Below are positions 1,037 to 15,292 of a DNA stretch of 15,292 bases, piece by piece. The stretch lies in the IMG/VR virus record IMGVR_UViG_2675903366_000018, one strand, 5' to 3'. The position numbers and the translations under genes are program-made. The notes under the pieces are model-generated. The model was given only the letters and a program-made list of their open reading frames with translations, did no database searches and was not told the origin of the DNA. The stretch comes from a virus (taxonomy: Duplodnaviria; Heunggongvirae; Uroviricota; Caudoviricetes). Each line of letters begins with the position of its first letter. Within the stretch, counting starts at the first letter, position 1.

Positions 1037-1581
1037 AGCAGGCCGCCCAGCCTCCCCCAATGGGGGATTCTGGAAGAATCAACGGGTTAGGCTGGTTTCC
1101 CCGATGTTCGCCGCTGGCGAATTTCGAAAATATCAACCAGTTACGTTAACGGCTATGGTCTGACAAGACAAACCACCGGGTAAATCAGATAATTACAGCA
1201 CCAGAATGTAAATTTATACTCTGCTTTAATATCAGTGGGTTAGGCCAAAGCCCGAAAAAGTGCTTTGTAAAAACTGAATACTGTAACTTTAACTTACGGT
1301 AATTGTTCTGCCTCGGTGCGCTCTCTTCCGTGGTCATTTCGACCATGCACCACACGAAAAGGGGGAGTGTTTATCACCTCCCCTTCGTGGTGATTTCCAC
1401 CATGCAGCCATCGCACCGCCACGCAAAAGGGATTTACCACTACCAGCTATATCCCTCAAATCCACCAGCGCAACACAGAACGCATAAAACCATTACGATG
1501 ACTCAGGACGCAAAACCACGTTTAACGTTGTTTTGCACTGAACCAGAATACTGTTCGTCTTTGTCTCGATGTCCGTACGCA

Positions 1582-1875
1582 TTACGTACGCAGCCGCTCC
1601 GGTTTCTTCCACTGGTAAGTCTTTTTCTCGCTCTCCCGATACATCTCCACGCGGCGACGATATGACAACAACTCCAGAACTCTGATCCGTATGTCGCGCA
1701 TATCCACGCCGTTAAGCTCAATACCATCACGGCGCATCACCTCAGCCACCACACGCGCGTAATTTTCAGCGGTGACAGTTTCCGGCTGCGTGGCCTCACG
1801 TTTGCCTGCTGCCGGGCTGATTCCGGTAACGCGGCGGATTATTTTTAGTAGTTCGGTTTCGCTCATTCTCGTCAT
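1582..1875 (-). CDS. Hypothetical protein (97 aa), translationally coupled to terL
   Basis: ATG at 1873-1875 overlaps the terL TGA stop (1872-1874) as ATGA; charged, non-repetitive composition. No recognisable family by eye. Confidence 0.45.
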   Translation of the reverse strand: MTRMSETELLKIIRRVTGISPAAGKREATQPETVTAENYARVVAEVMRRDGIELNGVDMRDIRIRVLELLSYRRRVEMYRESEKKTYQWKKPERLRT

Positions 1876-3533
1876 ACCCCATCAAACGCCGCAAGCCGCT
1901 CTTTGTGGCTGTCGCTTATATCAAAGGCAAAATCTTCATGCTCTGCCTGGAATGTGCCAAACGCCATCAGCGCCGCAACGCTCGGGTCTATCTTGTTGGA
2001 TGATTTTTTCTTGTTCGGCTTGATATTGGCGTTCGCGTCACTCTGCATCACAACATTACTCATTGACCAGGCCAGCACCGGATCACCACGATGCACAATC
2101 ACCTTCCGGTTAACAAAAACTTCGAACGATTTCGCCGCCGGACTGAAACGAAGGTATGTTTGCGGGAACGGCTCCACCTCAAATCCCGCGCCCTGTAGCT
2201 GCGTCCTCAGGTGCGTGGCGTTCCATGTATCGAAACCCACCAGCCTGATATTGAAATTCTCTGCATCCGCCATGATGTCATCACGGATACGGTCATAATC
2301 AATGCAGTCACCCGGTGTTGTGCGTATCCAGCCCGCCTTTGCCCACTGGCGATAGATGGCGCGGTTTTTATTGGCAGGGTTCTGTAGCTGAAATTCCGGC
2401 AGATAGTGACGGGAAACCAGCATAATCTTTTTACCGACCGGGAAGGCATAGCACACGCTGGAAATATCGCTGGTTGATGATAAGTCCAGCCCCGCGTAGC
2501 ACTCCTGCCCGTATAAATCCGCCTCCGCGAACGTTCCGGCGCACTCCGCCCATGCACCGTTACCCATCCATGGCGTAGCCCCCTGACACCAGATGTTAAA
2601 TCGCTTAGTAAGCATCTCCACCCACTGCGACGGAATACCCCGCGCTTTCTGGATGGTTGAGGCCAGTTTTTCACGATCGACGGAAACATCGATATTGGGA
2701 TTCGCCTTTATCCACATCGCCGGATCGTCAACCTCGCTTTCATCATCCAGCTCGTAAATCAGCACGAACATGGATTCATTCACCTCTTCACCATCCAGTA
2801 TCTGGCAGCAATAGTCATAGTGTTGTTTACAGGCTGAAACAACGTTGCTCCCCGATGTGGTGATGGCAAATAACAGCCCCTCCGGGCGTGCCCCCATTCC
2901 CAGTTCAAGCGCGGAATAAACCCCGTTGTCAGGGTGCAGGTGATATTCATCCACAATGGCGAGACTCGGGTTTGTCCCCTCAATGGTTGCCGCTTTTGCT
3001 GCCAGTGGCTTTAACAGGCTGTTGGTTTTCGGGTGTATCACCTTGTGCGCCTGAATATTTACCCGCTTTCGTAACGGTCGGGATAAAAGGCACATCTGAC
3101 GCGCATCATCAAACACGATCCGCGCCTGATCACGACTCACGGCGGCGGTGTAAATATCCTGCTGCCCGTTTTCCATAACCAGAAACCAGTTAGCCAGGAT
3201 AGCCGCGACCGTGGATTTGGCATTTTTTCGCGGTACTTCAATGAATGCGCTGGTGTATTTGCGCCGTCCGGTGGCCTTAACCTTAAAGCCCAGGATGCAG
3301 GCAAAGGCGAACTGCTGCCACGGCTCCAGCTCAATGGGGCTACCGCGCATTGCGCCTTTTACGTGCGGACACACCCTGGAAAAGGCAATAAACCGCTCCA
3401 CGACCTCCGGATCGAACGTGTAAAGGGGGTTTTCAAGGTCAGAAAAATACCGTTTAACGGCCTGTTTCAGTCGTTTACAGGCCGTAATTTTGCCGTTTTT
3501 TACGCCTTCTGCGTACTCATGCCAGGTGGTCAA
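1872..3533 (-). CDS. terL: Phage terminase large subunit
   Basis: 553-aa ORF; conserved terminase N-terminus (EYAEGVKNGKITACKRLKQAVKRYF), P-loop-like VPRKNAKST and Walker-B-like LAIVDEYH. No ATG near the 5' end; most upstream start is TTG at 3531-3533 behind a purine-rich AGAGGAAGAGGA stretch, overlapping terS by 17 nt. Confidence 0.9.
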   Translation of the reverse strand: MTTWHEYAEGVKNGKITACKRLKQAVKRYFSDLENPLYTFDPEVVERFIAFSRVCPHVKGAMRGSPIELEPWQQFAFACILGFKVKATGRRKYTSAFIEVPRKNAKSTVAAILANWFLVMENGQQDIYTAAVSRDQARIVFDDARQMCLLSRPLRKRVNIQAHKVIHPKTNSLLKPLAAKAATIEGTNPSLAIVDEYHLHPDNGVYSALELGMGARPEGLLFAITTSGSNVVSACKQHYDYCCQILDGEEVNESMFVLIYELDDESEVDDPAMWIKANPNIDVSVDREKLASTIQKARGIPSQWVEMLTKRFNIWCQGATPWMGNGAWAECAGTFAEADLYGQECYAGLDLSSTSDISSVCYAFPVGKKIMLVSRHYLPEFQLQNPANKNRAIYRQWAKAGWIRTTPGDCIDYDRIRDDIMADAENFNIRLVGFDTWNATHLRTQLQGAGFEVEPFPQTYLRFSPAAKSFEVFVNRKVIVHRGDPVLAWSMSNVVMQSDANANIKPNKKKSSNKIDPSVAALMAFGTFQAEHEDFAFDISDSHKERLAAFDGV

Positions 3534-3873
3534 GCTCGTCCTCTTCCTCTGTTTCCGGTGGATTTCTGCGGCGGCTTACCGGGTCAAAACCCAGCAAAGA
3601 AGCCATTTTGATCATTATTCTTTCTGCGTCAGCCTTTGCGCTCAGTGCGGGGTTTCTGCTCTCGCTGCCCTGACTGTTAACAATGCTGAAGCCGCGTGTC
3701 GCAAGGTCTTCGACGGCTTTGCGGTATAGGGAGTAGTTAACGCAATACAGTTCCAGATTGCTCCAGTCGGCGGGGGTAAGGTCTTCCCGCCCGGATAGCT
3801 GGCGCGATTTTTCCTTCCACTGCCTGACCGCGATTTCATCCAGGTAAGCGGGGGCTTTTGGTGGTCTTGCCAT
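3517..3873 (-). CDS. terS: Phage terminase small subunit (P27-family-like)
   Basis: Start taken at internal ATG 3871-3873 (MARPPKAP...), not the 165-aa ORF start. C-terminal GSESRNPALSAKADAERIMIKMASLLGFDPVSRRR matches the P27-family pattern; sits immediately upstream of and overlapping terL. Confidence 0.7.
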   Translation of the reverse strand: MARPPKAPAYLDEIAVRQWKEKSRQLSGREDLTPADWSNLELYCVNYSLYRKAVEDLATRGFSIVNSQGSESRNPALSAKADAERIMIKMASLLGFDPVSRRRNPPETEEEDELDHLA

Positions 3874-4161
3874 GTTCTTTTTTCGCCCAATTATTTTCAA
3901 AAAAATTCCCGTGCACAAAAATTTGAGGAGGCGGTCGGTGTCCGGCATGGACGGTTTCGTCCTGAAAACCTCCCCCACCCCCTCTGACGGCCTCACCAGC
4001 GATTGCGAAAACATTCCATGACCTCGCGGTCACGGTCGGTTAATCGCTTCGCTGTGGTGCGTTCTGTGCGCCCTGTCCTGTTGGCTTTGTGCTCTGTCTC
4101 CTGTGTCTTCCATGTGTCACGCTGCCTTATCAGTCCACGTATCAGCCTGTTTTGCTCCTGT

Positions 4162-4602
4162 TCAGTCATCATCGCCATACATCCAGTCGTTACGGTGTGC
4201 TGCCCGTTCTTCCTGATCGCGATACATGCCCGCCTTACGGTTCGCTTTCGTGGCTGGATCTTCCCGTGTCGTCTTACGGTTGTGGCACGTCTGACACAAT
4301 GCCTGGTGATTCCACTCAGGCCAGAAGAGAACATCACCGCCGCCATTGATGGGGATAATGTGATCCACCACAAAGGCTGGCGTATAAATACCCTCAGCCA
4401 GACAACGCACACATAACGGATTTTTTTTCAGGTACATGGCGCGGTATTTGTCCCACTGTCGGGAATACCCGCGCGCGCGGCGGTGTCCCCGTCTGGCATC
4501 CTCTGCACGCCATGCAGCCCGCCTGTGCTCTTCACACTTGCCGGACTTCACGCGCTTATTACAGCCCGGCTCAGTGCATCGCCTTAATGGTTGCCATGGC
4601 AT
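4162..4602 (-). CDS. HNH endonuclease (phage packaging-associated)
   Basis: N-terminal Cys cluster (CTEPGCNKRVKSGKCEEH) and HNH core (VVDHIIPINGGGD...NHQALCQTCHNRKT). ATG at 4600-4602 overlaps the upstream gene's stop as ATGA. Sits next to terS/terL as in cos-type HK97-like packaging modules. Confidence 0.85.
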   Translation of the reverse strand: MPWQPLRRCTEPGCNKRVKSGKCEEHRRAAWRAEDARRGHRRARGYSRQWDKYRAMYLKKNPLCVRCLAEGIYTPAFVVDHIIPINGGGDVLFWPEWNHQALCQTCHNRKTTREDPATKANRKAGMYRDQEERAAHRNDWMYGDDD

Positions 4603-4898
4603 CAGTACACCCCCACATCACGATAAACCGACCAGAGCGCGGAAATCGTCAGGGGAATTTCTTTTGTATCGGTATCGCCAAGCGTTGTCCGGTACTCGTA
4701 CAGTTGCGAGATGTACATCAGGCAACCAATTTTTATTGCAGGGGTAAATTCCAGGCCGTCATCAAAACGCCTGCCAATATGCTTCTGGCATACCTCCAGC
4801 GCCGCACTTATGTATGCCTGAATCAGTGTGTCTTCTGTGTTACCATCTATGCGGCAGTGAAGTTTGGCCTCTTCCAGGGTTATTTTTTCTGCTGTCAT
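4602..4898 (-). CDS. Phage head-tail connector protein (gp6-like)
   Basis: 98 aa; N-terminus ITLEEAKLHCRIDGNTEDTLIQ is typical of gp6-like connector proteins; ATGA overlaps at both ends. Confidence 0.7.
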   Translation of the reverse strand: MTAEKITLEEAKLHCRIDGNTEDTLIQAYISAALEVCQKHIGRRFDDGLEFTPAIKIGCLMYISQLYEYRTTLGDTDTKEIPLTISALWSVYRDVGVY

Positions 4899-5233
4899 TT
4901 TTCTGTACCCACCTTTGCCAGAATTTCCAGCCGGGTTCTTTTCGCATCAGGTAAGGGGATCCCGATGATATTAAGCGTGCTCCCGGCAAAAGCGCCGGTA
5001 AGCACTTTCAGGCGACTGGCGGCGGATATGTCGCCACGATAGCGAACCCATACCCGAATCGTTGCAGGTGCGGTTTCTGCGCCTGCGGTCAGTAATTCCC
5101 GTCCGCTGATCCCCTTGACCTCTGCCCAGATGGTTTCCCCTTCCGTCCATATCTGCTGGATCGCACCTGACGGCAGGCGCTGTGTGGTAAATGTCATAAT
5201 CGTCACCCGGTCCCGCATCTTTCCGGCTATCAT
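4895..5233 (-). CDS. Phage head-tail adaptor / head closure protein
   Basis: 112 aa; starts MRDRVTI...; size, position between portal and connector and overall similarity to head-tail joining proteins; ATGA coupling with neighbours. Confidence 0.65.
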   Translation of the reverse strand: MIAGKMRDRVTIMTFTTQRLPSGAIQQIWTEGETIWAEVKGISGRELLTAGAETAPATIRVWVRYRGDISAASRLKVLTGAFAGSTLNIIGIPLPDAKRTRLEILAKVGTEK

Positions 5234-6453
5234 TCGTCACCGCCCTTACTGTTCTTGCTGATTGTCACTTCCTGCTTCCATGCCTGGCTGAACTCGTCGC
5301 CACCTTCACGCGGCGGCATTCCCTCACGCTCACGGGCTTCGTTCGGATTCATGATCCCGTTCTTAATCCCTTTCTCATACGTGGCGTAACGTTCGGTAGG
5401 GGTGGCGCGTAATAAATCGGCTGAATCAAACTCAACCAGATAACGGGTACCAGGTACGGGAGAAGCCACCAGCAAAGCGGCCTTGATTTGCTGTTCGAAG
5501 TTCGCCAGCCACGGGCGCATTGTCATGGTCAGAAACGCACGGCTTGCCTCGCTGAAATTGCTGTAGGTGCTGTTGCTGTATTCCTGCAGAAAAATAGGCG
5601 ATACGTTGAACATGCGGGCGATGTCTTCAATGGAGAAGCGACGGGAGGCCAGCCATTCCGCATCCTGGTTACTCATTCCCAGTTGCTTGTAATCCATGCC
5701 CCCTTCAAGAATTGGCGTTTTTCCGGCATTTTTCGCCCCCTTGTAGCGTTCCAGAGCATCTAATGCCTGTTTACCTTTCACGCCGTCCAGCCATTCACCT
5801 GACGTGATAATCCCTGCCGCCATCATGCCATCTTTCATAATGCTGGCTCCGTGGCGCTGTTGAGCAAGACCAAGCCCCAGCGCCTCACGGCAAATCGTGA
5901 CAGGGGAGCGCCCCAGAAAGCCATCATCCGAGGCATAGCGGAGATGCAGAACTTCTTCCTGTAAATACGTGCGCACCGTTCCTGTATAGGGTTCGGTGAT
6001 GGTATAGCGGTATTTGTGTGCGCCTGTGCGTTCCGGTACAACACACCCCGGCGCATAAGGATGAAGTGATTTTGGCTGTCCGTCCCGCCCCCACTCAATA
6101 ACCGCATAGGCGTTACCGTTCAGCAGGCAGTGACGCATCATTGTGCGTTTAAACTGGTAAGGTGTCTGGCATGAATTAGGCTGCTCATTCAGCAGAATAT
6201 CTACCGGGTGACTGTCCAGCCATTCCCGCGCCTCTCTGCCCTTATCATTGCGTACAAGATACAGGTAACACGGCATCGTGGCCACCGCCTCAGAGATAAC
6301 AGAAACCGCGTTCATCACAGCAGGCAATGATTCAGCCGTCCCGGCAGAAACATATTCTCCAGATCCGGTATTTGGTACGCCGGACAGCGCCAGAAAATCA
6401 TCAATGGACAGGTTACGCTGCTCGCTTTTTTTACGACTAAAAGGCCACCACAT
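5230..6453 (-). CDS. Phage portal protein (HK97 family)
   Basis: About 407 aa from ATG at 6451-6453, which lies 1 nt after the protease stop (TGA at 6455-6457). The longer ORF to 6543 starts with TTG and overlaps the protease by 89 nt, so is judged an artefact. Length and position fit HK97-type portals. Confidence 0.8.
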   Translation of the reverse strand: MWWPFSRKKSEQRNLSIDDFLALSGVPNTGSGEYVSAGTAESLPAVMNAVSVISEAVATMPCYLYLVRNDKGREAREWLDSHPVDILLNEQPNSCQTPYQFKRTMMRHCLLNGNAYAVIEWGRDGQPKSLHPYAPGCVVPERTGAHKYRYTITEPYTGTVRTYLQEEVLHLRYASDDGFLGRSPVTICREALGLGLAQQRHGASIMKDGMMAAGIITSGEWLDGVKGKQALDALERYKGAKNAGKTPILEGGMDYKQLGMSNQDAEWLASRRFSIEDIARMFNVSPIFLQEYSNSTYSNFSEASRAFLTMTMRPWLANFEQQIKAALLVASPVPGTRYLVEFDSADLLRATPTERYATYEKGIKNGIMNPNEAREREGMPPREGGDEFSQAWKQEVTISKNSKGGDE

Positions 6454-6454
6454 A

Positions 6455-7015
6455 TCACAACCCCGCCAGCTCAGCCCAGCGATGACGATTATTTCCTGTC
6501 GGACGTAATTCGGGGTGCTGTGCAAACAACGAACGGTGGGCAATCTCCACGCCAGATTCTGGATAAGCAGGCATCGACGTTATTGTGATTTCTCGGAGTT
6601 CAGCGGCGGTTACGGTACGCAGATACGGTTTTTGCGCGATACTCCACTCCTCGCATAATGCGCGAAAACCAAAGCTCATTCCTGTAATGTCGCCACGCTC
6701 CACCAGCGTAAGCACATCTTTTCCAAGCTGGGTATCCGGCGGTGTCAGCTCAAAACGTAACCCGGTGTTATCCTCAGTCAGTACCAGAGTGCCGGATTTG
6801 GTGCGCCCCAGCAGTTGGGTATAGTCATGCTCATACAGGCAGCGCACATCATTACCCGCCGCCAGATAGTCAGCAAAAGCCCCCGGCGTGAACTGTTCGC
6901 GGAATTCGTCCCAGATAATTTCTGAAAGGCTGTTCCAGCGAACGGCATAACCCACCAGCTTTTTATTGCTGGCGGTCAGTTCAGATGTGCGGATTTCAAA
7001 ATCGGTGTTTTTCAT
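6455..7015 (-). CDS. Prohead (maturation) protease, HK97 family
   Basis: 186 aa; overall similarity to HK97-family prohead proteases by eye; ATG at 7013-7015 preceded by GGAG about 7 nt upstream. Confidence 0.8.
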   Translation of the reverse strand: MKNTDFEIRTSELTASNKKLVGYAVRWNSLSEIIWDEFREQFTPGAFADYLAAGNDVRCLYEHDYTQLLGRTKSGTLVLTEDNTGLRFELTPPDTQLGKDVLTLVERGDITGMSFGFRALCEEWSIAQKPYLRTVTAAELREITITSMPAYPESGVEIAHRSLFAQHPELRPTGNNRHRWAELAGL

Positions 7016-7035
7016 CGGTGTACTCCATAAAGCTG

Positions 7036-7056
7036 AAAAAGGAGGCCGCAGCCTCC
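7036..7056 (-). terminator. Putative intrinsic terminator/attenuator between capsid and protease genes
   Basis: On the minus strand: GGAGGC-TGCG-GCCTCC hairpin (6-bp GC-rich stem, 4-nt loop) followed by TTTTT, 14 nt after the capsid stop codon. Confidence 0.4.
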
Positions 7057-7069
7057 TCCTTACTCATGA

Positions 7070-8239
7070 CTAGCCAGCTTTCATTTCCAGAATTTTGATG
7101 GCGTTTGAATCCACCACACCACCGCCCAGATATTTATCCGTGTGGACCTTGTAGAATCCGGGTTCAGTAATGTTGTCCGGTCGGGTGCGAATCCCTGTTA
7201 CATGATCAACGATGAAATAACCACGACTGAAATCGCCAACCGCCAGCGGTGCTTTTCCTGCGCCGATGTCCGGCATGGACTCCAGGCAGTAAACAGGACG
7301 ACCAAGCAACATATCCGGCGCACCTTCTTTAAGGCTGTCGCGCCAGATATAATCGCCGTTCTCATTTTTCAGCTTCTGTAGTGTCCCTGCCGTGCCCGAG
7401 TTCATCACCCAGACGGCATTTTTGCGGTATTTCGCTTTCAGCCTGTAGAGAATGTCGATCAGTTCGTCCGCTGTAATGGCGGTTCCACTTGCCGCTATCA
7501 TTTTTTCAATGGTGCCAAAAGCGCGGGTTTTGTCACTGGTCGCTGCACGGGTGTAAGCCATGAAGCCTTTCGGCTTGCCGTTACCGTCGCCATTAACAAA
7601 ATCATCCTCTTCGGTGCTGGCGAACGTGTCGGCAATTTCGGAGGATAACCAGCCCAGAATATCCACCTCTGAAAAATCCAGAATTTCCTGCGTGGTTTTC
7701 GGGTAGGCGTAGATCGGATTCAGCTTGATGGTTACGCGTTCAATTTTCGGGGTGTTGGTTTCGCTGCGCGCGCTGCCTTCTGTGCCTCTTCCTACAGTTG
7801 CGCCGCCAGTGGAAACCAGTTTCTGAAACTCATTTGATTTTGCGGTCTTCACGGTCGCGATCACGCGCATAACACTGTCATCCTGTAGCTGGCGCATGAC
7901 TTCGCGATCAAGCTCAGGAATTACGGTATATCCGCCATCCCTGCCGCTGTCAGTGCTGGTGGATAGTGATCGCACATCTCCGGTTACGATGTAGTTACGC
8001 AATTCATCAGATGATAATTTCCGGATGCCCGTTCCTGGCTTGCTGCGTTCTTCATCAGCCACAGACTCGAGGCGGGAAATTTCTGTGCCGAGGGAATCGG
8101 CTTTTGCACGCAGTTCATCAAACTGTTTGCCCTCGTCATCGTTCAGGCTACGGTTTTCACTGTCGGCTTTTTCCAGCAGGGATCGCATCTGGTTTTTCAG
8201 GGCGTTTTTTTGCTGGCGGAGTTCGATTAATTTCTTCAT
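7070..8239 (-). CDS. Major capsid protein, HK97 fold, with N-terminal coiled-coil (scaffold/delta-like) region
   Basis: 389 aa; the first ~100 residues are heptad-like and rich in E/K/R/L, followed by a capsid-like domain; ATG at 8237-8239. Followed directly by protease and portal genes. Confidence 0.85.
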   Translation of the reverse strand: MKKLIELRQQKNALKNQMRSLLEKADSENRSLNDDEGKQFDELRAKADSLGTEISRLESVADEERSKPGTGIRKLSSDELRNYIVTGDVRSLSTSTDSGRDGGYTVIPELDREVMRQLQDDSVMRVIATVKTAKSNEFQKLVSTGGATVGRGTEGSARSETNTPKIERVTIKLNPIYAYPKTTQEILDFSEVDILGWLSSEIADTFASTEEDDFVNGDGNGKPKGFMAYTRAATSDKTRAFGTIEKMIAASGTAITADELIDILYRLKAKYRKNAVWVMNSGTAGTLQKLKNENGDYIWRDSLKEGAPDMLLGRPVYCLESMPDIGAGKAPLAVGDFSRGYFIVDHVTGIRTRPDNITEPGFYKVHTDKYLGGGVVDSNAIKILEMKAG

Positions 8240-8428
8240 GAAGGTTTTCTCGTATTGGTTAAGATTCAGGACGTGAAACCAACACGGAGGGAGCGCCGCC
8301 CGACACTCTCGGCATCTCGCAGATCAACCCGGCATCGCGCAGGGGTCAGGCGGCATTGTGGCGGCTCACGTCTGAGTGCCACACGCCAACATATACATAA
8401 AAATCAGTATGTAAACATCAGCCAGAAT

Positions 8429-8513: not shown

Positions 8514-8762
8514 TTATTGTTTCACTGGATCCCGCATTCTGCGTCTTATTTTCCACAGATATTCGATCATCGCTTCCACCTGCTCACGGTTGGTTGCGAA
8601 AATTTCCCCGGTCAGTGAGCTGCGCAGAAAATCATGATGATCCACAACAAACAACGCATCGGAAGAAAGCAGACGGCGATATTTTTTTGCTGTCGTGGTT
8701 TCCAGATCATCAAAACCATGAAACTTTTTATGTTGCTGAACTTCTTCAAATGTCACAGGCAT
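8514..8762 (-). CDS. Hypothetical protein (82 aa)
   Basis: ATG at 8760-8762 preceded by a perfect AGGAGG; the ORF-track start at 8780 is GTG and lacks an RBS. No recognisable family by eye. Confidence 0.5.
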   Translation of the reverse strand: MPVTFEEVQQHKKFHGFDDLETTTAKKYRRLLSSDALFVVDHHDFLRSSLTGEIFATNREQVEAMIEYLWKIRRRMRDPVKQ

Positions 8763-8794
8763 GTTTCCTCCTGCTACCACGATACCAGAAACAG

Positions 8795-9091
8795 TTAATA
8801 ACCGTTATCAATTATCCCTTTTTTTTTCGGGTAGTTCCTGAACATCTCACCGCCAGGTTTCTGTAAGCCCATCCCGGTATGTGTGCGGTTTATGGCCTCT
8901 TTCAGTATTCCGAAATTATCCGGCATGACTGGTGGGCGCGCTGCCTTACGGATACATTCCTCGCGACGCTTTGCCACCTGTTCGCGCTCCTTGTCAGTGC
9001 TCACCAGCCACATAACATCAGCCCAACGTGCCGCCGCTCTCCGGTACAGCCCTTTAGCCTCCAGTTCTTCCGCTTTGCTGTCTTTAATCAT
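8795..9091 (-). CDS. Small transcriptional regulator, PerC/ANR-like (tentative)
   Basis: 98 aa from ATG 9089-9091 (GAGG 6 nt upstream); N-terminal motif AEELEAKGLYRRAAARWADVM resembles PerC/ANR-family small regulators found in enterobacterial prophages. From memory only. Confidence 0.4.
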   Translation of the reverse strand: MIKDSKAEELEAKGLYRRAAARWADVMWLVSTDKEREQVAKRREECIRKAARPPVMPDNFGILKEAINRTHTGMGLQKPGGEMFRNYPKKKGIIDNGY

Positions 9092-9106
9092 GCTGTACCT
9101 CACTGC

Positions 9107-9532
9107 TTAAAACGGTATCCCGTCCCCGTACGGATCATCGTGCTGGCCTGTCTGTTGTTTTGCCCTGTTCAGTGCGTCAGTGGCCTGGCCCTGTTGACCT
9201 TTTTTGCCGCCCGGTCGCGCCGTTCGCGCACTGATTACGCTGTCTGCAATAACCTGCCAGCCCTGCCGCGTTTCGCCGTTCTGCCCTGTCCACTGGCTTA
9301 CCTGCATGTTACCCGCCACGCTCACCAGTTCGCCTTTGCGGTGTTTTGCCAGTGCGTCGGCCTGTCTGCCAAACGCCAGGACGGATAACCACATCGTCGC
9401 CGTTCCGTCATCTGCCTGGCTGCATGGAAGGGGAACCGCCATACTCACCATCGCCATTTGTGTCCCCTTGCTGGTGGTCTTTAACTGCGGGTCAGCCACC
9501 AGCCGACCGTAAGCCGCTATCTGTGCTGTCAT
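9107..9532 (-). CDS. ssb: Single-stranded DNA-binding protein
   Basis: 141 aa; Gly/Gln-rich linker and acidic C-terminal tail ...DDPYGDGIPF, the SSB protein-interaction tip; ATG at 9530-9532 with GGAGAG upstream. Confidence 0.75.
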   Translation of the reverse strand: MTAQIAAYGRLVADPQLKTTSKGTQMAMVSMAVPLPCSQADDGTATMWLSVLAFGRQADALAKHRKGELVSVAGNMQVSQWTGQNGETRQGWQVIADSVISARTARPGGKKGQQGQATDALNRAKQQTGQHDDPYGDGIPF

Positions 9533-9742: not shown

Positions 9743-11875
9743 TTAATCTTCTGCCTCAGGCTGGAACATCAGCACGTAAAAAACATGCTGCTTCCCCCCA
9801 ATTTTGCCGAGCGCCTTTTTCTTGTAACGGCGATCGTTACCCGCTTCCAGCATTCCGGCAGCACTCAACGCGCGGGCAAAGTGAGACGGATTAAATCCCT
9901 GTGCTATCTCACCCTCAAACACATGCGGGAACGTGTAAAAACGGAACTCGTCATCTTCGTTTCTGATACTCCCCTTTCTGTATCCGGCAAGCTCTTTAAT
10001 CGGTAAATCACGCTCGTCAGAGTTGGGCCAAGGAAGGTATCTGCTGAATCCGAACGACGCTAAAAAAGCCTCTGCCTGTTCAACCATCTGTTTAAACTCC
10101 CTGTTCCCCGTGCCGAACTCCTTCACCCAGGCATTAAAATTATGCTGAATGGCATCGCGGCATTCCTGCTCATCCCAGCCAGTAACATGACCGGAAAGTA
10201 CAAGCGCGGCCTCCAGTATGGCGAATCGTTCCCCCACACGGTGAACCTGTTCGCCGTAGCTCTCCGGTATCAGGTTGCGCCACCGCTCGCGACATGCCCT
10301 TACCGCGTCCTTTGCCTCCTGCTGGTGTTCTGCCAGCCATTTAACCCACTCACGACCTGCCGCCCCGTGATTTTCTGTCCAGGCATCTTTTAACGCGTCT
10401 GCGTGCGCCTTTCCGGTGCTGTATTCGTGAAACTGCGAGGCCTTTTCCATCGGCACGTTAAGCAGACGGACAAGCTGCCCCGCTTTAATTTTTATCCCTT
10501 CCGTTTTGAGGAATGTTTCAACGTCCATTTCTCCGGTGCTGATTGCCACCGTGCGCCAGTGTTTTATCTCCCTGTTGCCGCCGTCCTTCGCCCCCTGTAA
10601 TTTCCCCGAACCGTTAAACAGCGTATAGGCTGACGTGGACACCTCCCGCGCGTTTCCGGCCTGGCCTATTTCATCCAGGGGTAACAGCCCGTCATTATGT
10701 GCTTCGGCCTCGTTGGCGATACCTAACGCCGTTCCGTACCAGGTCAGCCGTTGCGCGTCCGGCTCTCCCCATAAACTGGATGCGATGTTCTGTGTGGTGG
10801 TTTTCCCTGCTGATGACTGTTCGAAAAGATGTACCCCGAAGCCGTCAGCACCCACCAGCCCGATTAATGGTGCTGATAACGATACCGCCACACCCAGCAT
10901 CATGGACGGATTACCACCAGCCAACCGCGCAACGGTATCGCGCCAGCCCTCCGCCGTTCCTGCCTCGGAATAACCATTAACAGCGGCAGTTTTTCCGGTA
11001 AACAGGACTGGCTTTTCGCAATCACCAATGACCGAACCGTCCGGCATGATGTACGCGCCAAAATGCCAGCCCGTTGTTGTGCTTAACTGCCATTCCTCAT
11101 GGTTTCCGCTTAACTGCATCCAGTCAGCCAGGATAGCCCTGTATTTACCGTTGGTTGTCACATTCAGTCCGTGGTCTTTCAGCAGCCGCCAGCCGTCACG
11201 GTCGCCAATGCCCCCACACGGGATCGCCATTGTGATGACTTCATGGTTTGCTGGTTTTTTCCAGCGCATCACGCGGTAATGCTCTTTGCCGATTGTCCCC
11301 GTTCCCAGTAGTTCAAGCGGGGAACATAACCACGTCTCAGGCCGGATAATTTCGCCTGACTGCTTATCCACTTTTGGCGTTACCCAGAAAACACCATCGG
11401 CACGGCTTTCAACGCGGGGCTTTAATTCATCATCACCCGGGCTTGTGGTGGTTTTTTTCTTTACCGGAAGCTTAATTACCAGATCTGCAGAAAGATTCTG
11501 ACGCTCAACGTTCAGATAGCGCCGCCAGTTCTCACATTTCTGACCGTGCATTCCTTCAGGGTAAAAATTCGCATCCTGAATATCTGCCGCCGCCAGCTTC
11601 TGACCGATCTTTTTGGTCTCCACTAAATCCAGTTCTCCGGCCTGGTACAGCCTTACGCGTTTTTTCCCATCCGGAACAATTTTCAGCGCATCAAGTTCGG
11701 CAAGCTGATTTGGCCCAAGCCACACAGGCGGCACATCATCGCCAGATGCGGGGCCGTCCTGCTCCTGCCACTGTTTTGCATGTGCCCACGCATCACTACC
11801 CGCGAAAATAATTACCTCTGTGTCTTTGTGTTTTATTCCGCGTGGTTGTTTTTTTACGTTCGGTGCCAGTTTCAT
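9743..11875 (-). CDS. Replication initiator, primase/helicase-type (Pri-Rep-like), with central P-loop NTPase
   Basis: 710 aa; Walker A GVHLFEQSSAGKTTT and Walker B GLLPLDEIG in the central region; resembles DUF927/primase-associated replication proteins of satellites; ATG at 11873-11875 overlaps the upstream ORF's stop (ATGA). Confidence 0.75.
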   Translation of the reverse strand: MKLAPNVKKQPRGIKHKDTEVIIFAGSDAWAHAKQWQEQDGPASGDDVPPVWLGPNQLAELDALKIVPDGKKRVRLYQAGELDLVETKKIGQKLAAADIQDANFYPEGMHGQKCENWRRYLNVERQNLSADLVIKLPVKKKTTTSPGDDELKPRVESRADGVFWVTPKVDKQSGEIIRPETWLCSPLELLGTGTIGKEHYRVMRWKKPANHEVITMAIPCGGIGDRDGWRLLKDHGLNVTTNGKYRAILADWMQLSGNHEEWQLSTTTGWHFGAYIMPDGSVIGDCEKPVLFTGKTAAVNGYSEAGTAEGWRDTVARLAGGNPSMMLGVAVSLSAPLIGLVGADGFGVHLFEQSSAGKTTTQNIASSLWGEPDAQRLTWYGTALGIANEAEAHNDGLLPLDEIGQAGNAREVSTSAYTLFNGSGKLQGAKDGGNREIKHWRTVAISTGEMDVETFLKTEGIKIKAGQLVRLLNVPMEKASQFHEYSTGKAHADALKDAWTENHGAAGREWVKWLAEHQQEAKDAVRACRERWRNLIPESYGEQVHRVGERFAILEAALVLSGHVTGWDEQECRDAIQHNFNAWVKEFGTGNREFKQMVEQAEAFLASFGFSRYLPWPNSDERDLPIKELAGYRKGSIRNEDDEFRFYTFPHVFEGEIAQGFNPSHFARALSAAGMLEAGNDRRYKKKALGKIGGKQHVFYVLMFQPEAED

Positions 11876-12159
11876 TTCTTACCCCCTGCGACCAGCATTT
11901 CACGGATTTTGCGGATATAGCTTGCTGCACGTTTCTGATTTACGGCTTTACGATGGCCCACCAGCGTGAAATCACGCCGGAACTGATAAACAGGCATCAC
12001 GCAGTCATATTCGTAGCCATCACGGCGGTAAGTGATGCGCCGTTCTGCCACGCCTTTAATCGTTACCATGCCGCCATATTTATCGCGGTAAATATCGCCG
12101 TTCATAAATTCAGGACGAGCGGGGCCGCTGGCGGTAAAGCCAGAATTTTTATTTTTCAT
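11872..12159 (-). CDS. Hypothetical protein (95 aa), translationally coupled to the replication gene
   Basis: ATG at 12157-12159; stop overlaps the pri-rep start; basic, non-repetitive composition. Confidence 0.5.
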   Translation of the reverse strand: MKNKNSGFTASGPARPEFMNGDIYRDKYGGMVTIKGVAERRITYRRDGYEYDCVMPVYQFRRDFTLVGHRKAVNQKRAASYIRKIREMLVAGGKK

Positions 12160-12588: not shown

Positions 12589-12686
12589 AGCTGCCTCGAT
12601 ACTCTCGTTATCGTTGGTGGTTAGACGCCCCGTATGTGTTTCCGGCACTGCGGGGCGTTGCTCTTTGTATTTCAACAATCCTTTCG

Positions 12687-12766
12687 GTGTGTTTCATGTT
12701 ATGAGCGCATGAAACACACGTCAAGGCTTTTTGTATTTCTTTTTTTGTGTATACTGAAACACACCG
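12687..12766. promoter_or_regulatory. Divergent control region: perfect 12-bp inverted repeat GTGTGTTTCATG-N9-CATGAAACACAC (12687-12719), third half-site TGAAACACACCG (12755-12766) overlapping a -10-like TATACT (12750-12755)
   Basis: Read directly from sequence; lies between the minus-strand small-gene operon and the plus-strand gene starting at 12786 (AGGAG RBS at 12773-12777). Confidence 0.45.
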
Positions 12767-12785
12767 ATGATTAGGAGTTTCAGAA

Positions 12786-13091
12786 ATGGCAACGGCTAAC
12801 AAAAACGCAAAATCACAACTGACAACTGTCAGAGTCCCACTAGATGTTATGCAAGGGATGGAATCCGTTAAGCTGGACGGCGAAAGCAATGCCGGATTTA
12901 TCGTAACCGCCATGCGCGGAGAAATAGCCCGCCGCCAAGCAGAAGGCAGCGGAGAAAATCCCCTTGTGTCGTCACTGGATGCCCTGGCTAAGGTCGAACA
13001 AATCGGCATCAAAGCAGCGGAAGAAATCGGGCAGCTTGTCACCGTTGCACGCGAAGAACTCCAGCGTCGCAAGACCAAAGAACCAGAGTAA
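12786..13091 (+). CDS. Putative DNA-binding regulator (possible ribbon-helix-helix), 101 aa
   Basis: ATG 12786 with AGGAG 8 nt upstream and promoter-like TTGTAT...TATACT; N-terminal TTVRVPLDVMQGMESV fits a beta-strand-then-helix RHH-like start. The antisense 271-aa ORF here is Ser/Cys-rich and judged spurious. Confidence 0.45.
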   Translation: MATANKNAKSQLTTVRVPLDVMQGMESVKLDGESNAGFIVTAMRGEIARRQAEGSGENPLVSSLDALAKVEQIGIKAAEEIGQLVTVAREELQRRKTKEPE

Positions 13092-13133
13092 TCACCATCA
13101 GCGCCGTGGTGTAAGGTATTACGGCGCATTGCT

Positions 13134-13322
13134 ATGCAGGACAACACAATGACCGATAAAGAATTGACCAAAACATTATCACCGGCACGGAAAAGACGGC
13201 GCAGAAAGATAGAGCATGAATCAGAAAGATTCGCGCCATGTGCTTTTGCTCTTGAGAAATTCCTTAAGGAGCACAAGAAAAAGCTATCATTGCAAACCTG
13301 GGAGCTAACCGAATCTGACTGA
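13134..13322 (+). CDS. Hypothetical small basic protein (57-62 aa; RKRRRRK motif)
   Basis: Same strand and 42 nt downstream of the preceding gene; alternative ATG at 13149 has AGGA 8 nt upstream; followed by a strong terminator. Confidence 0.35.
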   Translation: MQDNTMTDKELTKTLSPARKRRRRKIEHESERFAPCAFALEKFLKEHKKKLSLQTWELTESD

Positions 13323-13386
13323 TCACATTGCCCACCAGCCAGCAAATCGCTATGATGTTCGGGCTTATGTTTAGTGTTTTCCCATT

Positions 13387-13415
13387 GGCGACCGCCCCCG
13401 GTCGCCTTTGTTTTA
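13387..13415 (+). terminator. Rho-independent terminator closing the plus-strand two-gene module
   Basis: GGCGACCG-CCCC-CGGTCGCC (8-bp GC-rich stem) followed by TTTGTTTTA; located between the plus module and the convergent alpA 3' end. Confidence 0.55.
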
Positions 13416-13434
13416 TGTGCCATATACTCCCCCT

Positions 13435-13644
13435 TTACGCTGCCTTACCTGAATTAATGCGATCCCGGCTTTTAACCCATTCCATAACCTCGGACAGCAG
13501 CCAACCAACAGAACGACCGCCCAGATTAAGACGTGACGGAAAGCATCCTTTTTTCTCCAGTTCGTAGCGTGTAGTGCGACACACTCCAGTTAACTTACGA
13601 CATTCATCCTCACGGATTACGCGATCTTCATTTATTTCACGCAT
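13435..13644 (-). CDS. alpA: AlpA-family phage transcriptional regulator / excisionase-like HTH protein
   Basis: 69 aa from ATG 13642-13644: MREINEDRVIREDECRKLTGVCRTTRYELEKKGCFPSRLNLGGRSVGWLLSEVMEWVKSR, the AlpA-type HTH pattern. The ORF-track version starts with GTG at 13731 (98 aa) and could be the true start; the HTH position favours the shorter form. Confidence 0.75.
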   Translation of the reverse strand: MREINEDRVIREDECRKLTGVCRTTRYELEKKGCFPSRLNLGGRSVGWLLSEVMEWVKSRDRINSGKAA

Positions 13645-14053
13645 ACAAAAACCTACATAAAAATTACGTATATAAACTTTTCTCTTAGCTGTAGATATAT
13701 GAGATCGGATATTACTTAGATTCTTTTTCACCTCTTAAATTAAAAACACAACCTTGCTAAAGGCTTTGTTCGCTAAGGTTCGTAGAAGCTCGTTAGTGTT
13801 TAAAATCGTGTCACGAGTTTTTAAGCGACGCAACAAAAAATGTCGTCATTTGGCATTACGCTTGAATTATCTCATTAAAAACAAATAGATAAACCATCAG
13901 GTATTGGAACAATCAAGAAATAGCTAATAAGGGTTTAGTAGGGTGCATTTCAATTTTTTCGATGGTTGACAAATAAAAAATTAACGAACTTGACCGATAT
14001 TTAGCGTTTTATTCACGGCTGTAATCTCTTAAAGAAAAAACAGCCGTAATTTG

Positions 14054-15292
14054 TCAAGAATTTTGGGTGTAAATTCGCGGGGTCATAACAACGATTTTTT
14101 CATCATTGTTCTGGAGAAGCTCGAGACGGTCTACCCATAGATTAAGAGCATCACGTTTTGCATCAAGATAACGGGAGTGGTTATAGACTCGCTGCATCCC
14201 TGGCATCTGGTGGGCTGTAAGCTGCTCGACAATATGCGGATCCACGCCTAAATCGTTCAGCATGGTTGTAAATGTGTGCCGGATGTCATGCAACGACCAG
14301 GGGGCTTGATTAATGCGTCTGTGTGCCGTTCTTCCGTACTCTGATACGGATGATTGCCCTTTCAGTTCTCCAAGCAATAAGCCCGTGTGCCTGTTCTTCT
14401 GCACCAGCTTCGTGACGAACGGCAAAATGCTTTCCGGTATTGGCCTGAATATGGCGACCTTCGTTTTGCTGTGCTCCTTCGGTACTGTCCAGAGCATTTC
14501 TTTAAAATCCCACTCCTGCACCTCAGAGCGCCTTAGCTCAGTGGTACGGCATCCAAAAACAATCAGGAGGCGAATTAGGGCGCTGTAGTATGGCGGGAAT
14601 ATTTTGTCATCCAGGGCGCGGAGTAATTCCCCAAGCTCCTTATTTGTTAGTACGCGCTCGCTCACTTCTGCTTTTTTTCCCACATCACCGACAACCATAT
14701 CATCAAGAACGTTGCTGATTGCGTATCGTCGTTTTCGGCAGTACTTAAGCGCCTGTTTGCATACCTGTAGCAAAAATCCGGCTGATACCGGATTACGCTT
14801 AGCAAGCTGGTCAAAACAGGCCAGCCAGTGGCGTAGCTCGCATTTTTCCAGTGGCATAGCGCCAATCTGGCTAATTATGTGTTTATTGATCCGGCTTTTC
14901 AGTGATTCGTAGTCAGTGCGCTTTTCCTTTGCGTACGATTCAAGCCAGTAAGTGAGCGCTTCCTTAACCGTCACGGGGGCTAACGCATCCTGTACAGCAT
15001 GATTAAGTTCATAGCGCGGATTTTTCCCCTCAGCCAGCCAGGCGCGACACTGTGCCGCTTTTTCCCTGGCAGCTTTCAGGCTCAGATCGGGATAATTGCC
15101 CAGCCTCAGACGTTCCGGTGATATCTGCCTACCAGTTCCGGCCCTGTAAGTGAAATACCAGGTTAACAGGCCATTGATTGAATGCCTTACGCTAAGGTTG
15201 CCACCATCATTAAAAAAGGTGCTTTTTGTGGTTGGTGATCCGCTTAATTTTCGTAAAAGAGTGTCGCTAAGTCTATGAATTGCCCTGCTCAT
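14054..15292 (-). CDS. int: Tyrosine site-specific integrase (P4-like family)
   Basis: 412 aa; catalytic-domain motifs GCRTTELRR, HDIRHTF (H-x-x-R) and YNHSRY (catalytic Tyr region); ATG is the last three bases of the window, so upstream attachment site and promoter are not visible. Confidence 0.9.
   Translation of the reverse strand: MSRAIHRLSDTLLRKLSGSPTTKSTFFNDGGNLSVRHSINGLLTWYFTYRAGTGRQISPERLRLGNYPDLSLKAAREKAAQCRAWLAEGKNPRYELNHAVQDALAPVTVKEALTYWLESYAKEKRTDYESLKSRINKHIISQIGAMPLEKCELRHWLACFDQLAKRNPVSAGFLLQVCKQALKYCRKRRYAISNVLDDMVVGDVGKKAEVSERVLTNKELGELLRALDDKIFPPYYSALIRLLIVFGCRTTELRRSEVQEWDFKEMLWTVPKEHSKTKVAIFRPIPESILPFVTKLVQKNRHTGLLLGELKGQSSVSEYGRTAHRRINQAPWSLHDIRHTFTTMLNDLGVDPHIVEQLTAHQMPGMQRVYNHSRYLDAKRDALNLWVDRLELLQNNDEKIVVMTPRIYTQNS

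Follow-up and report, generated by a model that had tools for sequence, protein, structure and literature searches.

The stretch of DNA analyzed here, 15,292 nucleotides (nt) long (IMG/VR record IMGVR_UViG_2675903366_000018, filed under Caudoviricetes; hereafter, the window), very probably carries, on its minus strand between positions 1582 and 8415, a single capsid-and-packaging operon of a Proteobacterial, EcCIEDL933-like capsid-forming phage-inducible chromosomal island (cf-PICI), whose insertion site in Escherichia coli lies between clpS and cspD. From the capsid ATG at 8239 to the terL stop at 1872, the genes run in the order capsid, S78 protease, portal, head-completion protein, gp6-like connector, HNH endonuclease, a 61-amino-acid (aa) open reading frame (ORF), a cos-like gap, small terminase (terS), and large terminase (terL), followed by a 97-aa ORF. 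This capsid-first order is correct but is already known as the standard layout of the clade, since both Alqurainy et al. (bioRxiv 10.1101/2022.09.08.507074) and He et al. (10.1101/2025.02.11.637232) state it to be conserved. That the island would form capsids of its own and be transferred with the aid of a helper phage is read from its homology to EcCIEDL933.

The gene order from capsid to terL and its bounds (1872 to 8239), as proposed in an initial annotation made by a model from the letters of the window and a list of its ORFs, proved exact, and each of the genes has a strong match in Pfam or PHROG. The first encodes a major capsid protein with the HK97 fold (389 aa; 7070 to 8239; PF05065 Phage_capsid, E = 2e-71; phrog_10), as had been proposed. 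It is followed, on the same strand, by a prohead serine protease (186 aa; 6455 to 7015; Peptidase_S78, E = 7e-46, with the PHROG assignment in agreement), a portal protein (407 aa; 5230 to 6453; Phage_portal, E = 1e-92, PHROG again agreeing), a head-completion protein (112 aa; 4895 to 5233; Phage_HCP PF05521, E = 1e-18; phrog_25, "head closure Hc1"), and a gp6-like head-tail connector (98 aa; 4602 to 4898; PF05135, E = 8e-12; phrog_40, "adaptor Ad1"). The names of the last two are crossed between resources: the "head-tail adaptor" of NCBI is the Phage_HCP protein and its "connector" is the gp6-like protein, with the PHROG words the opposite way round (Hc1 and Ad1, respectively, below); the names in the initial annotation were those of NCBI. 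Next come an HNH endonuclease acting as a packaging accessory (146 aa; 4162 to 4602; PF01844; phrog_144, E = 1e-44), a small terminase of the P27 family (TerS, 118 aa; 3517 to 3873; Terminase_4 PF05119, E = 8e-23; phrog_83), and a large terminase combining an ATPase with a nuclease domain (TerL, 553 aa, TTG start; 1872 to 3533; PF03354 and PF20441; phrog_9, E = 2e-180). Two of these ORFs had initially been read too long: the portal gene begins with the ATG at 6453 rather than the upstream TTG at 6543, and terS starts at the ATG at 3873, as annotated in RefSeq relatives, which leaves the 165-aa ORF too long.

The initial gene list was also incomplete, having missed the 61-aa ORF, the 119-nt cos-like gap, and the 97-aa ORF. 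The 61-aa ORF (3993 to 4178) overlaps the 3' end of the HNH gene by 17 nt, is labeled "hypothetical protein" in RefSeq relatives, and was recovered by tblastn at the same place in no fewer than 60 related loci; its product matched no family and, adjoining the cos-like region, may be a packaging accessory. The 97-aa ORF (1582 to 1875; phrog_1561) is joined to terL by an ATGA junction, and equivalents are annotated 3' of terL in relatives; the operon probably extends to its end at 1582. About 200 nt past this last ORF, a terminator-like hairpin with a T run (1357 to 1385, minus strand; z = -3.7 for the region) is probably the operon end. The description of almost all junctions as ATGA or 1-nt junctions overstates the coupling, as this is true of four of the seven junctions between named genes and is confined to a core running from the protease to the HNH gene. 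Within this core, protease and portal are separated by 1 nt, portal and Hc1 as well as Hc1 and Ad1 are joined by ATGA, and Ad1 and HNH overlap by 1 nt (TGATG). Elsewhere, a 54-nt gap containing a hairpin separates capsid and protease, 288 nt separate HNH and terS (comprising the 61-aa ORF and the 119-nt noncoding gap between this ORF and terS), and terS and terL overlap by 17 nt.

The conservation of this order was evaluated in 160 related loci recovered by capsid-based searches, 80 from species-representative genomes of Enterobacterales, Orbales, and Pasteurellales and 80 from IMG/VR, the latter being the best 80 matches of the scan, all close cf-PICI relatives, used here for order conservation. 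In tblastn searches with the window proteins, every sufficiently long locus among them displayed the order capsid-protease-portal-(Hc1)-Ad1-HNH-(61-aa ORF)-terS-terL, and the shorter gene patterns are contig truncations. Were the window a degraded and rearranged remnant of an HK97-like prophage, its order being a product of decay, the lack of tail and lysis genes would be explained, and indeed no tail or lysis family was matched by any of the 19 ORFs scanned with PHROG and Pfam. Yet all eight packaging genes expected of a cf-PICI are present and intact in the window, their order is the same across three orders of Gammaproteobacteria, most IMG/VR contigs carrying the module measure 14 to 18 kb, and a 16.5-kb linear record comes from an induced lysate. 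Moreover, experiments have shown that EcCIEDL933 makes its own capsids and is transferred, transfer being abolished when each packaging gene was mutated (Alqurainy et al., 10.1101/2022.09.08.507074), and no inactivating mutation was seen in the window copy. We therefore regard decay as a very improbable origin of the order. A complete or cryptic HK97-like prophage, in which the canonical order would be followed by tail and lysis genes, was likewise rejected as an assignment for the window, both on its order and on its want of such genes.

Comparisons with phages place the module in the same way. In 50,697 phage records, the window capsid and TerL are 61 to 83% identical to proteins of cf-PICI-like records and at most 37% identical to those of any true phage, and when the island of E. 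coli O157:H7 is counted along with the cf-PICI records, their identities to the window proteins range from 61 to 94%. The two proteins thus belong with cf-PICIs and apart from phages, in the sense of an identity gap and not of a phylogenetic tree. The records matching at 61 to 83% comprise one 3.8-kb fragment, several records of 10 to 16 kb, and one 106-kb record, and all of them are capsid first. These records, labeled as phages, are vB_KppS-Ant, Pmp7, Pmp8, S.Kent 1-2-1, and P12620-1; the four that are 10 to 16 kb long or fragmentary are really cf-PICIs. The true phages were sampled from an annotated phage collection as close relatives and do not amount to a census. Every one of them shows HNH-cos-terS-terL-portal-protease-capsid-Ad1-Hc1-tails, either by annotation (ST64B, phiP27, VW-6S, D14E, and BiPBO1) or by the coordinates of capsid and portal (SfII, SfIV, As1, 689R6, S.Typ Adana, Javan100, and two NatCom phages). 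The canonical order that the initial annotation ascribed to HK97-like phages accordingly held throughout, the capsid-first order being absent from those sampled, and the synteny comparison that it called for also came out as anticipated, with the window collinear with the O157:H7 cf-PICI. Its further claim that the order is a fixed signature of the satellite lineage, and not of a degraded prophage, stands for the Proteobacterial cf-PICIs, on the 160 loci and the literature, but fails for those of Firmicutes. We also observed seven IMG/VR loci (L090, L091, L094, L096, L154, L131, and L136), close relatives of the island with a different integrase (42 to 45% identity), that are lodged within the TerL gene of an HK97-like prophage of canonical order, which they split near residue 310 or near residue 200.

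The difference between the two orders can be resolved into parts. Seen from cos, the terminase block keeps the canonical arrangement (HNH, cos, terS-terL), whereas the head genes lie upstream of HNH and are reversed in two blocks, capsid-protease-portal and Hc1-Ad1, with the orientation of each gene kept. The reversal of the connector pair (Hc1 then Ad1 in the window and Ad1 then Hc1 in phages) went unremarked in the initial annotation. A circular permutation or a single inversion cannot yield the window order. The cos site is probably carried by the conserved 119-nt noncoding region directly upstream of terS (3874 to 3992), in which the motifs GGGGTGGGGGAG, TTTCAGGAC, CCTCAAATTTTT, and TTTTTTTGAAAATAA are conserved family-wide; the annotated cos of phiP27 occupies the same interval between HNH and terS. 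In addition, the linear record LR881103 opens and closes inside the HNH-terS gap, with terS-terL first and capsid through HNH last. We dropped the ends of this record as the exact cos ends, since it skips a stretch of about 60 nt shared by all relatives and thus locates cos only roughly.

Both the canonical terminase block and the linear map of LR881103 could be taken to mean that the order is only apparent, having been created by opening a circular genome at att instead of at cos, and a part of the rearrangement is indeed of this kind. However, with orientations kept, permutation cannot produce capsid-protease-portal or Hc1-Ad1, so that such an account applies to the terminase block only, and as an explanation of the whole order we consider it improbable. 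As to the source of the genes, TerL has its nearest phage relatives in BiPBO1-like phages, and capsid and portal have theirs in ST64B, P27, and Pseudomonas phages; no match to the protease was detectable in either group; this gives a weak hint that the module of the clade may have been assembled from different phage sources.

The remainder of the window shows the backbone of a mobile island. We identified a tyrosine integrase (14054 to 15292, with its start at 15292; Phage_integrase and Arm-DNA-bind_3), AlpA (13435 to 13731; Phage_AlpA), a DUF4222 protein (11872 to 12159), a DUF927 primase of the alpha type found in P4 (9743 to 11875), and a single-stranded DNA-binding protein (SSB; 9107 to 9532), together with an Icd-like protein and a divergent YlcI/YnfO gene; all long ORFs of the window are on the minus strand. 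The integrase, AlpA-type regulator, and replication module that define a cf-PICI are therefore all present. The element boundary on the clpS side is marked by the att core ATTAACTACACCATT (174 to 188); in an E. coli relative (L001), the identical 15-mer is located 24 nt beyond, i.e., upstream of, the int start. This places the size of the element at about 15.1 kb, within the range of roughly 10 to 18 kb between att sites of cf-PICIs, with the second att copy of the window island inferred from L001. No match to the sid, psu, or delta families of P4 was found in the window, which sets it apart from P4-like satellites. A small, head-only set of genes in a chromosome might also recall a gene transfer agent (GTA) or another domesticated, tailless-capsid system of the host. 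The integrase, AlpA, primase, att repeat, and strain-variable insertion site speak against it, as does the restriction of the packaging module (at a coverage of at least 80%) to 160 of 5,426 complete genomes of E. coli, with 98.7% as the highest match. Furthermore, known GTAs keep the canonical order and encode tails. We give domestication practically no weight.

Among described systems, the closest to the window is the island of O157:H7 strain OK1 at phoQ-roxA, which we equate, by serotype, size, and content, with EcCIEDL933, also called CP-933C, O-island 51 (OI-51), or Sp7. The two are collinear gene for gene (int, alpA, Icd-like, DUF4222, DUF927 primase, SSB, PerC, a small ORF, and the packaging genes, including the 61-aa and trailing ORFs) and share the geometry of the promoter and a 5' leader hairpin with a GACG loop. 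They differ in their insertion sites and in the level of conservation of their products, which is high for TerL (94%), primase (90%), TerS (87%), HNH (83%), and portal (82%) and low for capsid and protease (63% each), the head-completion protein (54%), and the connector (68%); the low identity of the last two suggests that tail specificity may differ. The capsid-first order is the conserved organization of Proteobacterial cf-PICIs (Alqurainy et al., 10.1101/2022.09.08.507074); as an ordered gene list it has been used as a cf-PICI search criterion (He et al., 10.1101/2025.02.11.637232), and 969 such islands with a very conserved organization have been reported (De Sousa et al.). Firmicutes cf-PICIs likewise encode their own capsid and terminase and use stolen tails but have two other layouts, with portal-protease-capsid or hnh-terS-terL first, and are of independent origin (Alqurainy et al., 10.1101/2022.09.08.507074); capsid-first order is thus no signature of cf-PICIs in general. 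The HK97-like cos/HNH phages with P27-type TerS (phiP27, ST64B, SfII/SfIV, VW-6S and D14E of Pseudomonas, and BiPBO1 of Brucella) share with the window the families of all eight genes, the HNH-cos-terS-terL suborder, and a GC-rich hairpin directly 3' of the capsid gene, but their proteins are at most 37 to 40% identical and portal-protease-capsid-Ad1-Hc1 comes after terL, followed by tail genes. Finally, classical PICIs of E. coli (EcCICFT073 and EcCIED1a) and P4-like satellites have an integrase-AlpA-primase half that is shared or exchangeable with that of the window, P4 itself having the Icd-like and DUF927 primase genes, but they encode no capsid, portal, or TerL themselves, remodeling or redirecting helper capsids instead.

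The head-tail interface (4602 to 5233) appears to be a hot spot of swapping when judged against positions 7542 to 7844 of L001, in which the packaging flanks are 96 to 98% identical to those of the window, the head-completion gene is missing, and the connector is only 56% identical. The head-completion protein is the most divergent component of the module (22 to 74% identity) and is missing from a sublineage, with about 24 related loci having no space for Hc1, a kind of variation already known. Such swapping fits the published finding that adaptor and connector decide tail specificity (He et al., 10.1101/2025.02.11.637232).

Upstream of the capsid gene is a 274-nt gap containing a promoter-like site (TTTACA-16 nt-TATGTT; 8388 to 8415, minus strand; 9 of 12 consensus positions), whose geometry is kept in relatives (e.g., TTTACC-16-TATTCT in the O157:H7 island). 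It ends 5 nt before the first hairpin of a conserved 5' untranslated leader of about 145 nt (8240 to 8382, minus strand), which shows both pairing and covariation. Hairpin 1 (8358 to 8382; 25 nt, GTGGCACTCAGACGTGAGCCGCCAC) has a GACG loop and starts 5 nt after the -10 element; it is followed by hairpin 2 with a long stem (8293 to 8356), a C-rich TCCCTCC (8286 to 8292), and a box, TTGGTTTCACGTCC (8269 to 8282), complementary to the loop and arm of hairpin 1, all on the minus strand. The stem of hairpin 2 is kept through wholly different sequences, with all 10 basal pairs covarying, and the sole variant of hairpin 1 in an alignment of 24 sequences bears two compensatory pair changes. Overall, 95% of the leader cells are paired, compared with 83% in shuffles, with compensatory changes at 12 of 19 pairs. 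The initial annotation had the capsid gene first after the promoter: the capsid does head the operon, and the part concerning the promoter rests on this conserved promoter-like site and leader and is to be taken as putative.

Hairpin 1, which is nearly invariant, was recovered from 76 of 142 distinct upstream regions, and its exact 25-mer is found in at least 120 IMG/VR contigs; in all 112 evaluable cases it precedes a cf-PICI capsid gene by 128 to 146 nt; among phage records, the 25-mer is restricted to cf-PICI-like ones. A search of Rfam recovered no family for the leader at gathering or permissive thresholds. The sequence GACGTGA, contributed by the loop and 3' arm of hairpin 1, could pair over a long range with TCACGTC of the box (8271 to 8277), which precedes the ATG by about 30 nt. 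This complementarity is kept in 168 of 168 cells, with one compensatory pair only, and chance alone gives such 7-mer matches not infrequently. Two genes adjoin the operon upstream, one for an 88-aa protein (8514 to 8780; phrog_1957) and one for a PerC-family regulator (8795 to 9103). The 88-aa ORF, a candidate regulator, was found by tblastn mostly in loci with a hairpin 1 leader, and its product yielded close homologues only, with no match in PDB, Pfam, or NCBIfam. PerC was ruled out as an essential activator, since a relative otherwise 95 to 98% identical has no PerC, making it dispensable.

The leader of the O157 type (L283, 15631 to 15830; L284 to L323) has a different sequence but follows the same logic. 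It comprises a GACG-loop hairpin with CCAGGACGC, which is complementary to GCGTCCTGG, and GCGTCCTGG is in turn the 5' arm of a clear intrinsic terminator (GTCCTGG-N16-CCAGGAC-T7/8) that forms the 3' end of the leader and abuts the capsid ATG; the window leader, in contrast, has no such terminator before the capsid ATG. These leaders are so uniform that the long-range pairing is invariant and uninformative as to covariation, and only the terminator stem has a compensated variant (L330). To judge from its layout, the O157-type leader looks like an attenuator.

At the other end of the capsid gene, the capsid-protease spacer contains a terminator-like hairpin (GGAGGC-TGCG-GCCTCC followed by TTTTT; 7036 to 7061, minus strand; -23.1 kcal/mol, z = -2.5). 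A GC hairpin was detected in 98 of 104 distinct spacers of relatives, compared with 4.5% of shuffles, and a T-rich tail was detected in 91; the hairpin count allows the T run to pair with upstream A's, as a stricter criterion of a hairpin plus a T run undercounted. Together, the leader and this 3' hairpin suggest capsid-biased expression and possible RNA-level control, since with the capsid gene bracketed by the two its mRNA would exceed downstream read-through mRNA. We went further and considered that the capsid operon of cf-PICIs may be RNA controlled by a cis-acting leader, with an anti-antiterminator/antiterminator/terminator layout in the EcCIEDL933 type, and that the leader and 3' hairpin may time and dose the capsid; this is a tentative proposal that we hold to be possible but on balance doubtful.

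The resulting picture of the life cycle would be as follows. A helper phage would trigger AlpA-dependent excision and replication, as has been shown for EcCIEDL933 and is expected here by homology. Going by the anatomy of the region, transcription would start at the promoter-like site and pass through the structured leader. The capsid mRNA, lying between the 5' hairpin and a leaky 3' terminator, would accumulate over the read-through mRNA, and the latter would serve the coupled downstream genes, whose products would be needed at no more than 12 copies per particle. By homology, the capsid, protease, and portal of the island would build small T=4 heads with 240 copies of the capsid protein, the numbers reported for the cf-PICI capsid by He et al. 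(10.1101/2025.02.11.637232); HNH, TerS, and TerL would cut at the island cos and fill the small heads with the 15-kb genome; and the two connector proteins would dock helper tails. We infer that the gene order fits a falling copy requirement along the operon.

Several points weigh against this reading. The function of the island of the window is assigned by homology; as the left att copy lies outside the window, the mobility and intactness of this copy of the island are putative. The promoter-like match, taken alone, is no better than chance. The stem of the capsid 3' hairpin is mostly one sequence (GGGGC/GCCCC), so that covariation support is thin, and a hairpin likewise follows the capsid gene in phage relatives, in most cases lacking the T run. 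As the hairpin is shared with these phages, it would have been inherited and is no special adaptation to the capsid-first order. The stoichiometric rationale for the order is itself conjectural, and historical accident explains the data equally well. Indeed, an order that is real but neutral, a frozen accident of the founder's assembly from phage modules and devoid of expression logic, has a substantial chance of being the right account, only a little short of even. It draws support from the three origins of cf-PICIs, each with a layout of its own (Alqurainy et al., 10.1101/2022.09.08.507074), from the different nearest phages of TerL and of capsid and portal and the unmatched protease, which hint at mixed sources, and from the presence of the capsid 3' hairpin in phages. 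Set against it are the constancy of the layout across three bacterial orders while flanking modules, integrase, and connectors swap freely and the conserved, dedicated leader at the start of the operon, both of which are also compatible with a frozen accident.

Some further features of the window lie outside the operon. Within the element and beyond the operon are about 1.4 kb of noncoding DNA (200 to 1582), and no convincing ORF was found in 174 to 1582. This region contains a 23-nt perfect palindrome, CTTTTCCACCAATGGTGGAAAAG, twice (298 to 320 and 1009 to 1031) along with degenerate copies, as well as ATAACCCGCAA iterons, three direct (556 to 611) and three inverted (456 to 482), on either side of an AT-rich stretch, an arrangement that resembles an ori; beside att, there are two copies of CCACGAACAA (201 to 230). 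A 271-aa ORF (12608 to 13423) was rejected as spurious, being antisense to the YlcI/YnfO gene and unannotated in relatives. The DUF4222 protein is probably a homologue of RgdR (ECs1581), since the DUF4222 gene of the O157 island agrees with it in its length of 99 aa and in position. RgdR, 99 aa long and encoded on CP-933C, regulates the LEE type III secretion system and has an RGD motif reported to be important for activity; residues 20 to 22 of the window protein read NGD in place of RGD.

In practical terms, the capsid-first order offers annotators a quick diagnostic by which cf-PICI satellites can be told from degraded prophages; the counterpart of the window island in O157:H7 was itself termed a degraded prophage in 2012. 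The cf-PICI literature that we compared makes no mention of a promoter, transcript, or antitermination, and we found in it no description of the leader of about 145 nt or of the capsid 3' hairpin. These two elements provide concrete coordinates that may bear on the switching and dosing of the operon. If the proposed RNA control is true, a switch made up of the leader and the 3' hairpin would account for the capsid gene standing in first place.

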